Shown one piece after another: positions 1,037-1,240 of a DNA stretch of 9,599 nucleotides; position 1 is the stretch's first letter; each line of letters begins with the position of its first letter. The position numbers and the translations under genes are program-made. The stretch lies in the IMG/VR virus record IMGVR_UViG_2541047169_000010, one strand, 5' to 3'. The DNA comes from a virus. Lineage: Duplodnaviria; Heunggongvirae; Uroviricota; Caudoviricetes. The notes beneath the pieces are model-generated. The model did not search any database, was not told the DNA's origin, and saw only the letters and a program-made list of their open reading frames with translations.

Positions 1037-1240
1037 ACGGGGCGGGCGGGCGCGGAAAAAGGCGCATTTTTGTGATTTTATCGTCATCATCATCATGATG
1101 GTAACTTGTTGTTTTTAATGCTGTTAGTATTAAAAAGATGATGATTGTGGTTGTTTTTTGTTCGACATCTTTATATGGCGGCATTTCTTTACAAAAAAAC
1201 AGAGTCACTTCTGTTCTGCGGTTTATGTGGAGGGATGTAA
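1037..1240. other. putative cos site: cosN-like GC-rich core (~1037-1055) followed by an AT-rich cosB-like region up to the small terminase start
   Basis: Sequence ACGGGGCGGGCGGGCGCGG at 1037-1055 resembles the lambda cosN core (ACGGGGCGGCGACCTCGCGGG as recalled). It sits immediately upstream of the Nu1-like terminase gene, as in lambda. Downstream there is an AT-rich stretch with a (CAT)4 run and a CATCATGATG palindrome (1086-1100) and a related GATGATGATTGTGG motif (1137-1150), which could be terminase-binding elements. Confidence 0.55.

Follow-up and report, generated by a model that had tools for sequence, protein, structure and literature searches.

A probable lambda-type cos site, with an 11 bp interval between its cosN flanks, in an Escherichia coli prophage of the VT1-Sakai/Stx-phage lineage

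Positions 988–1240 of the DNA we have analyzed very probably form a complete lambda-type cos site, most likely working in the same way as the cos of lambda. The lambdoid prophage that contains it belongs to the VT1-Sakai (Sp15)/Stx-phage lineage. We call the whole stretch of DNA (9,599 nt) the window. It corresponds to a complete contig, AVSM01000056.1, from an E. coli draft genome and carries the late region of the prophage. Three things are directly observed: the homology with lambda, the architecture of the subsites and, as reported, the packaging of phages that share this cos and terminase. A cos at this place would fix where the chromosome is cut and packaged in Shiga-toxin prophages of E. 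coli and their relatives, a widespread family. Apart from the polymorphism in spacing within one terminase lineage, which is of some interest, this is an ordinary lambda-type cos.

The features of the window are listed in Table 1. The site lies where a lambda-type cos is expected, with lysis genes on its left and the genes for the small and large terminase subunits on its right. The start codon of TerS, at 1241, would fall at bp 202 of the predicted chromosome, as against bp 191 in lambda. TerL has both the ATPase and the nuclease domain of the gpA family, as lambda-type cos systems do, and its alignment with lambda gpA covers the full length of the protein (24% identity, E 1e-18). A search of PDB sequences with TerS or TerL gave no significant match. 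Bases 900–1300 share 99.8% identity with prophage VT1-Sakai (Sp15) and 94–97.5% with several Stx2 phages. A match covering at least 80% of the window is found in 494 of 5,426 complete E. coli genomes (about 9%). When genome contigs were scanned with TerS, only three Proteus loci were found, which added further examples of a 12-nt cosN.

The portal gene (4046–5431) has an in-frame deletion of 117 nt (39 codons) near 4901, when compared with NZRM4165 and with the annotated 1503-nt portal of VT1-Sakai. The shortened portal, of 461 aa, is found on only three contigs of a large collection. Such a deletion could leave the prophage reliant on other prophages for heads in this strain.

Table 1. Features of the window. 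Subsites of cos are named after their lambda counterparts; the slashes in cosN mark predicted nicks.
Feature	Position	Strand	Remarks
Rz, lysis gene	64–531		
Small ORF	555–779		
Non-coding stretch, 460 bp	between small ORF 555–779 and TerS		
cos region	988–1240		between Rz and TerS/TerL
Pre-cosQ conserved block, GATAACCATTATCATTTTTGC	988–1008	+	aligns with lambda 48453–48472, GATAATCATTATCACTTTAC; kept in cdtI and close relatives
cosQ-like heptamer, GGGTCCT	1009–1015	+	identical to the lambda heptamer, 48473–48479
cosN, ACG/GGGCGGGCGGG(C)/CGCGG	1037–1055	+	left half and flank as in lambda; CGCGG right flank in all relatives
I2-like spacer with phased A5/T5/T4 tracts, from cosN to cosB	1054–1080	+	aligns with lambda I2; GGAAAAAGGC..TTTTT kept in relatives
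R3-like predicted TerS element, TCGTCATCATCATCATG	1081–1097	+	holds (CAT)4; conserved in Fels-1, LLS and yong2
IHF-like I1 site, AAACAACAAGTTA	1102–1114	-	one mismatch to WATCAANNNNTTR; between R3 and R2
R2-like predicted TerS element, + strand AAAGATGATGATTGTGG	1134–1150	-	inverted with respect to R3 and R1; conserved in Fels-1, LLS and yong2
R1-like predicted TerS element, TTGTTCGACATCTTT	1158–1172	+	TCGACATC inside it matches the repeat core; orientation as R3
TerS, small terminase subunit, DUF1441 family	1241–1717	+	PF07278, E 3.8e-48; PHROG 141 'terminase small subunit', E 6e-66
TerL, large terminase subunit, lambda gpA family	1714–3837	+	GpA_ATPase PF05876, E 1.8e-81; GpA_nuclease PF20454, E 6.2e-84
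W-like adaptor, lambda-family portal, ClpP-protease/major-capsid fusion, cement protein, gpZ; tail genes	downstream of TerL		

The original prediction had proposed a probable cos site from the letters of the window, and had listed four strings which are all present where it placed them: the core ACGGGGCGGGCGGGCGCGG (1037–1055), the (CAT)4 run (1085–1096), the palindrome CATCATGATG (1091–1100) and the motif GATGATGATTGTGG (1137–1150). It also suggested an alignment with the cos regions of other lambdoid phages. We have aligned the window with lambda, Fels-1, LLS, Hafnia phage yong2, mEp460_4F5 and cdtI, and the cos of lambda is matched subsite by subsite. The pre-cosQ block, GGGTCCT, ACGGGGCGG, CGCGG, the A/T tracts and TAACTTnnTGTTT all align with lambda, despite the low identity of TerL and a TerS which is not detectably similar.

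In lambda, GGGTCCT is a signal for the termination of packaging, and cosQ is highly conserved (PMC4669245). The heptamer of the window is found 24 nt from the predicted nick, in the range expected for cosQ (about 20–25 bp upstream of the nick); this distance is 23 nt in lambda and 22 nt in cdtI and LLS. As to cosN, the lambda record (NC_001416) ends with ...GGTTACG and starts with GGGCGGCGACCTCGCGGG. These ends agree with the lambda sequence given in the original prediction: ACGGGGCGG is common to both DNAs, which diverge from position 7 of the cohesive end. The left half of cosN, GGGCGG preceded by CG, is present, ACG/GGGCGG (1037–1045) being identical in the window, lambda, cdtI, LLS and Fels-1. 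There is a single exact copy of ACGGGGCGG in the window. GGGTCCT followed by ACGGGGCGG 18–24 nt further on also occurs once, and in none of 200 shuffled sequences. By homology, the top strand would be nicked at 1039/1040. The predicted nick in the bottom strand lies opposite 1050/1051, which would give an 11-nt overhang, or opposite 1051/1052, which would give a 12-nt overhang.

The + strand around cosN (1021–1055) is rich in G tracts (GGGGTGGG...GGGGCGGGCGGG). Oligonucleotides of the (G3C)n type are known to form quadruplexes (PMC12190944).

The cos region is AT-rich (GC 0.36–0.42, as against about 0.55 in the flanks), a feature already pointed out for the DNA downstream of the core. It contains a spacer which resembles the I2 segment described in lambda (PMC4856287), followed by three putative TerS elements. 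R3 corresponds to bp 42–58 of the predicted chromosome and contains three overlapping matches to the repeat core TCRWCATC; the coordinates of R3 are 50–65 in lambda and 48–60 in N15 (PMC9026076). R3 and R2 form a 100% inverted repeat (ATCATCATC, 1086–1094, and GATGATGAT, 1137–1145), and R2 and R1 form a 90% inverted repeat (1131–1140 and 1166–1175). The counterpart of R1 is GTTCATCATC in Fels-1 and GTTCACCATC in LLS and yong2. Nine copies of the repeat core are found in the window, with 1.86 expected, and none of 200 shuffles reaches this number; five of the nine are within 1081–1169. The (CAT)4 run and the motif at 1137–1150 had been suggested as candidate elements for binding TerS or IHF, and they are indeed part of the candidate TerS sites R3 and R2, with an IHF-like site between them.

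The IHF motif, with at most one mismatch, appears three times in 9.6 kb when 5.3 matches are expected, a count which is not above chance. The IHF-like site is supported by its placement and by its conservation in Fels-1 and lambda, not by this count: the equivalent place is occupied by TAACTTAATGTTT in lambda and by TAACTCATTGTTT in Fels-1, and perfect matches to the IHF consensus are found at the equivalent spot in sister cosB types. The order R3-I1-R2-R1, with an inverted R2, is that of the cosB of lambda, phi80, 21 and Gifsy-1 (PMC9026076, PMC4669245). At the sequence level, the window has all the elements of such a complex cosB, with three repeats, the middle one in reverse orientation, and an IHF-like site separating R3 from R2. 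We consider that the motif matches in cos are beyond chance because ACGGGGCGG is unique, the cosQ-cosN pattern is absent from the shuffled sequences, TCRWCATC is in excess and the R3/R2 inverted repeat is perfect.

The 10-bp palindrome CATCATGATG, which had also been suggested as a binding element, does not hold as a functional unit. It reads CATCATTAGTG in Stx2_95 and Stx2_14040, whose TerS are 100% and 96.8% identical to that of the window, so it is not conserved even where TerS is the same. It reads CATCATGTTG in Fels-1 and is not conserved in LLS either. The conserved unit, as judged from these alignments, is the CAT repeat of R3, and the palindrome is apparently incidental.

The records of four relatives with matching TerS and TerL families (cdtI, LLS, yong2 and Cr-LKS3) open at the homologous cos. 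The cdtI record ends with ...CCACG and starts with GGGCGGGAGCGTCGCGG, that is, the homologous GGGCGGGAGCGT followed by CGCGG. In the LLS record, bases 1–12 are annotated as a misc_feature, '5'extended single-strand cohesive site GGGCGGCGCGCT'; these ends were themselves inferred from homology (PMC12315714). The yong2 record opens at the homologous CGCGGG flank. The record of Cr-LKS3 opens with GGGCTCGCG/CGCGGAA, and its cohesive ends are reported to be 5' extensions of 9 nt (PMC9303873). [quoted passage not shown] The proposal of a cos site is thus supported by its position, its homology with lambda cos, the architecture of its subsites, the gpA-family terminase downstream and the records of relatives which start at GGGCGG.

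The record of mEp460_4F5 (LR595868) begins with CCACG/GGGCGG, 5 nt upstream of the predicted nick. We have rejected it as evidence for a nick, on account of this offset and because the project deposited a sister record that opens at TerS. Phage ASU11 (ON416862.2) was induced by mitomycin and its TerL is 99.7% identical to that of the window. About 46 bp are missing from its record when compared with CP-1639, and the gap is centred on cosN (the homologue of 1032–1078 in the window). Such a gap would be expected if the virion DNA has its ends there. It may represent the ends of linear virion DNA, lost in assembly, or a real deletion.

Several close relatives are known to be packaged. The two Stx2a phages of strain 12E129 do not differ from the window in cosN or cosB, with 100% identity in TerS and 99.9% in TerL, and mitomycin C induction yields particles in which their DNA resists DNase (PMC8112680). 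The DNA of Sp15 is packaged in O157 Sakai (PMC2669165). Phage phi1720a-02, which has TerL and the cosQ-cosN-I2 segment in common with the window, has been shown to package its genome and to form infective virions (PMC6328086; bioRxiv 10.1101/2025.01.01.630987). Our literature search, which did not take in the cosN survey of Vahanian et al. (2017), found no published mapping of ends for this lineage, no phage paper with these cohesive-end strings and no paper on phage ASU11.

By homology with lambda, we may propose how the site would work, including the positions of the nicks and the binding of TerS and IHF. Dimers of the DUF1441 TerS would bind the CAT-repeat elements R3, R2 (inverted) and R1, and IHF would bend the DNA at 1102–1114, bringing R3 and R2 together. 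The TerS/IHF complex would anchor the gpA-family TerL on cosN. TerL would then nick the top strand at 1039/1040 (ACG/GGGC). Its nick in the bottom strand would be 11 or 12 bp further right, either directly before CGCGG or one base into it, so that the 5' overhang would be rich in G (GGGCGGGCGGG or GGGCGGGCGGGC). Packaging would proceed rightward into the terminase and head genes, and would terminate at the next cos of the concatemer, where cosQ (1009–1015) and cosN would be read.

A different possibility is that the cos is genuine but inert in this strain: the prophage would be defective and its cos would never be cut, or would be cut only with heads from another prophage. We find this unlikely. 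The portal deletion with respect to VT1-Sakai and NZRM4165, in a variant which is found on only three contigs, agrees with it, but a portal with an in-frame deletion may still be functional. Sp15 is known to have defects in head formation which are complemented by other prophages, although Sp15 DNA is itself packaged (PMC2669165). Moreover, cosQ, cosN, cosB, TerS and TerL are intact in the window, and they are identical or nearly identical to those of packaged phages (PMC8112680).

Two other explanations deny that the region is a cos, and both are far less probable. Headful packaging from a pac site is the least probable of all; its only favourable argument is that recognition sites close to TerS exist in both strategies. 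TerL is of the gpA type over its full length, not of a headful clade, with both gpA domains and an end-to-end alignment to lambda gpA, cosQ and cosN are homologous to those of lambda, and relatives have been deposited with defined cohesive ends (PMC9303873). It is also very improbable that the G run and the CAT repeats are not packaging signals but part of a promoter or terminator of the terminase operon, or of the minus-strand ORF 999–1208. A RefSeq hypothetical protein is annotated on the minus strand in the homologous stretch of NZRM4165, and there is one weak promoter-like match on the minus strand (1104–1075). Nevertheless, this ORF (69 aa) has no PHROG match, and close relatives differ by 1-nt indels in the G run, the T run and the A run which would break its frame, so we have rejected it as a spurious gene. 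We have also rejected a promoter or terminator role, as the counts of both are at chance level. Besides, the conservation follows the subsites of lambda cos across phages with highly diverged proteins.

If the region is a cos of the lambda type, the length of its cohesive ends deserves attention. The interval between ACG and CGCGG (the latter at 1051–1055) is 11 bp in the window. Lambda, cdtI, LLS and Fels-1 have 12 bp at this place, Stx2_95, Stx2_14040, CP-1639 and 1720a-02 have 10 bp, and mEp460_4F5 has 9 bp. Of 124 sites sampled from IMG/VR, 105 have an interval of 12 nt, 10 have one of 11 nt and 9 have one of 10 nt. The conserved CG flank which forms the context of the second nick thus starts 11 bp after the left nick, as compared with 12 in most relatives. 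With 11 bp instead of the canonical 12, one of the two nick contexts or else the stagger cannot be as in lambda. The same I2 and R3 sequences are found with intervals of different length, therefore the change in the interval is not compensated.

The 5' overhang may be GGGCGGGCGGG (1040–1050, 11 nt), if both nicks keep their CG flanks, or GGGCGGGCGGGC (1040–1051, 12 nt), if the stagger is fixed at 12. The first reading is supported by the 9-nt ends of Cr-LKS3, which have matching flanks. We lean slightly towards the 11-nt overhang. The cohesive end had been predicted at roughly 1040–1051: by homology its left end at 1040 stands, while its length of 12 nt is questionable, as the flanks are 11 bp apart and the end may rather be 1040–1050.

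We may tentatively go one step further, with somewhat less than even confidence. Within one TerL lineage (99.6–99.9% identical), the length of the overhang would not be fixed at 12 but would be set by the two local nick contexts, each with its CG flank. The ends would then have 10 nt (phi1720a-02, Stx2_95), 11 nt (the window, VT1-Sakai and the 12E129 phages) or 12 nt. These variants would arise by slippage in the (GGGC)n or G-run tract, with no compensation in the spacer between cosN and R3. If this is true, a lambda-type terminase does not keep its two nuclease centres at a rigid stagger of 12 bp. The question of a fixed stagger or local sites has been raised and left open (PMC9026076), and the 10/11/12-bp polymorphism, in functional phages with the same TerL, offers a cheap natural test.

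The specificity of packaging is a separate matter. A lambda specificity would involve a TerS of the Nu1 family and the R sequences of lambda. The window has neither: its TerS belongs to Pfam DUF1441 and not to Phage_Nu1, a BLASTP comparison with lambda Nu1 gave no alignment, and its repeats are of the CAT type. A packaging specificity distinct from that of lambda follows, at least as predicted from sequence, because cosB and the DNA-binding domain of TerS are different. The original prediction had reached the same conclusion, for a reason that does not stand, the divergent right half of cosN: in lambda-like phages this half varies freely without setting specificity (PMC4669245).

The structural model of TerS has a mean pLDDT of 78, and its N-terminal 57 residues form a strand-helix-helix-wing-helix. 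The best Foldseek matches of this N-terminus are terminase DNA-binding domains (7LW0; 6HN7; gpNu1 1J9I) and MerR winged-helix proteins, all of them weak (E 0.05–0.2).

The sister Stx phages CP-1639, phi1720a-02 and ASU11 allow us to examine the cosB/TerS region on a practically constant TerL (99.6–99.9% identity). Their DNA is identical to the window from cosQ through cosN to I2, and so are residues 101–158 of TerS, the C-terminal 58. They differ in their cosB repeat, GGCACCATCACCACC (CACCATCACC type), in the wing region of TerS (residues 31–65, 29% identical) and in the 10 bp between the flanks of cosN. As cosB repeats and TerS residues 31–65 differ jointly on a constant TerL, cosB and the DNA-binding domain of TerS travel as one cassette. 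The comparison supports the idea that the CP-1639-type difference is a natural swap of a packaging-specificity cassette. Swaps of a comparable kind are known from lambda/21 hybrids. A mosaic joint is found inside TerS: when the window (1076–1540) is compared with CP-1639, 1720a-02, ASU11 and P0009, cosB and TerS residues 1–100 diverge, with full identity from residue 101 to 158 and a TerL identity of 99.6–99.9%. The movement of cosB and TerS as a cassette, with TerL constant, is relevant to the question of which prophages and satellites of a common host can package each other (PMC2669165).

In comparison with other systems, the site shares with lambda its place before the terminase genes, the cosQ heptamer, the left half of cosN with its ACG flank, CGCGG and the A/T spacer. 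The order and orientation of the three repeats, the IHF-like site between R3 and R2 and the distances from the nick (R3 at 42–58 as against 50–65) are also similar. [quoted passage not shown]

The lambdoid phages with a DUF1441 TerS (Fels-1, mEp213/LLS, Hafnia yong2, mEp460 and cdtI; the Gifsy-1/2 group) are closer, with 35–58% identity in TerS and about 71% in TerL. Fels-1 has 78% DNA identity from cosN to R2. Fels-1, LLS and yong2 have the same type of R3 (CATCATCATCAT), an inverted GATG R2 and a GTTCAnCATC R1. The interval between flanks is, however, 12 bp in these lambdoids (GGGCGGCAGCGG, GGGCGGCGCGCT, GGGCGGGAGCGT), none of them has the (GGGC)3 core, and the cosB of cdtI is of the GGCGGCGGC type. 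The Cylindrospermopsis phage Cr-LKS3 is similar in its gpA-family TerL, its DUF1441-like TerS (32% identical), the GGGTCC upstream and the CG/GGGC.../CGCGGAA flanks, which are identical to those of the window. It differs in its 9-nt overhang, its cyanobacterial host and its 66% GC, and a CAT-repeat cosB is not evident.

Four of the IMG/VR contigs (L021, L029, L108 and L134) contain two different cos sites each, in the same orientation and 2.5–10.7 kb apart. In L108 (4785–10856), a D5-like primase/helicase and SSB are followed by the first cos, a lone ClpP-protease/capsid fusion, the second cos and a DUF1441 TerS. This arrangement looks like that of a capsid-encoding satellite (cf-PICI-like).
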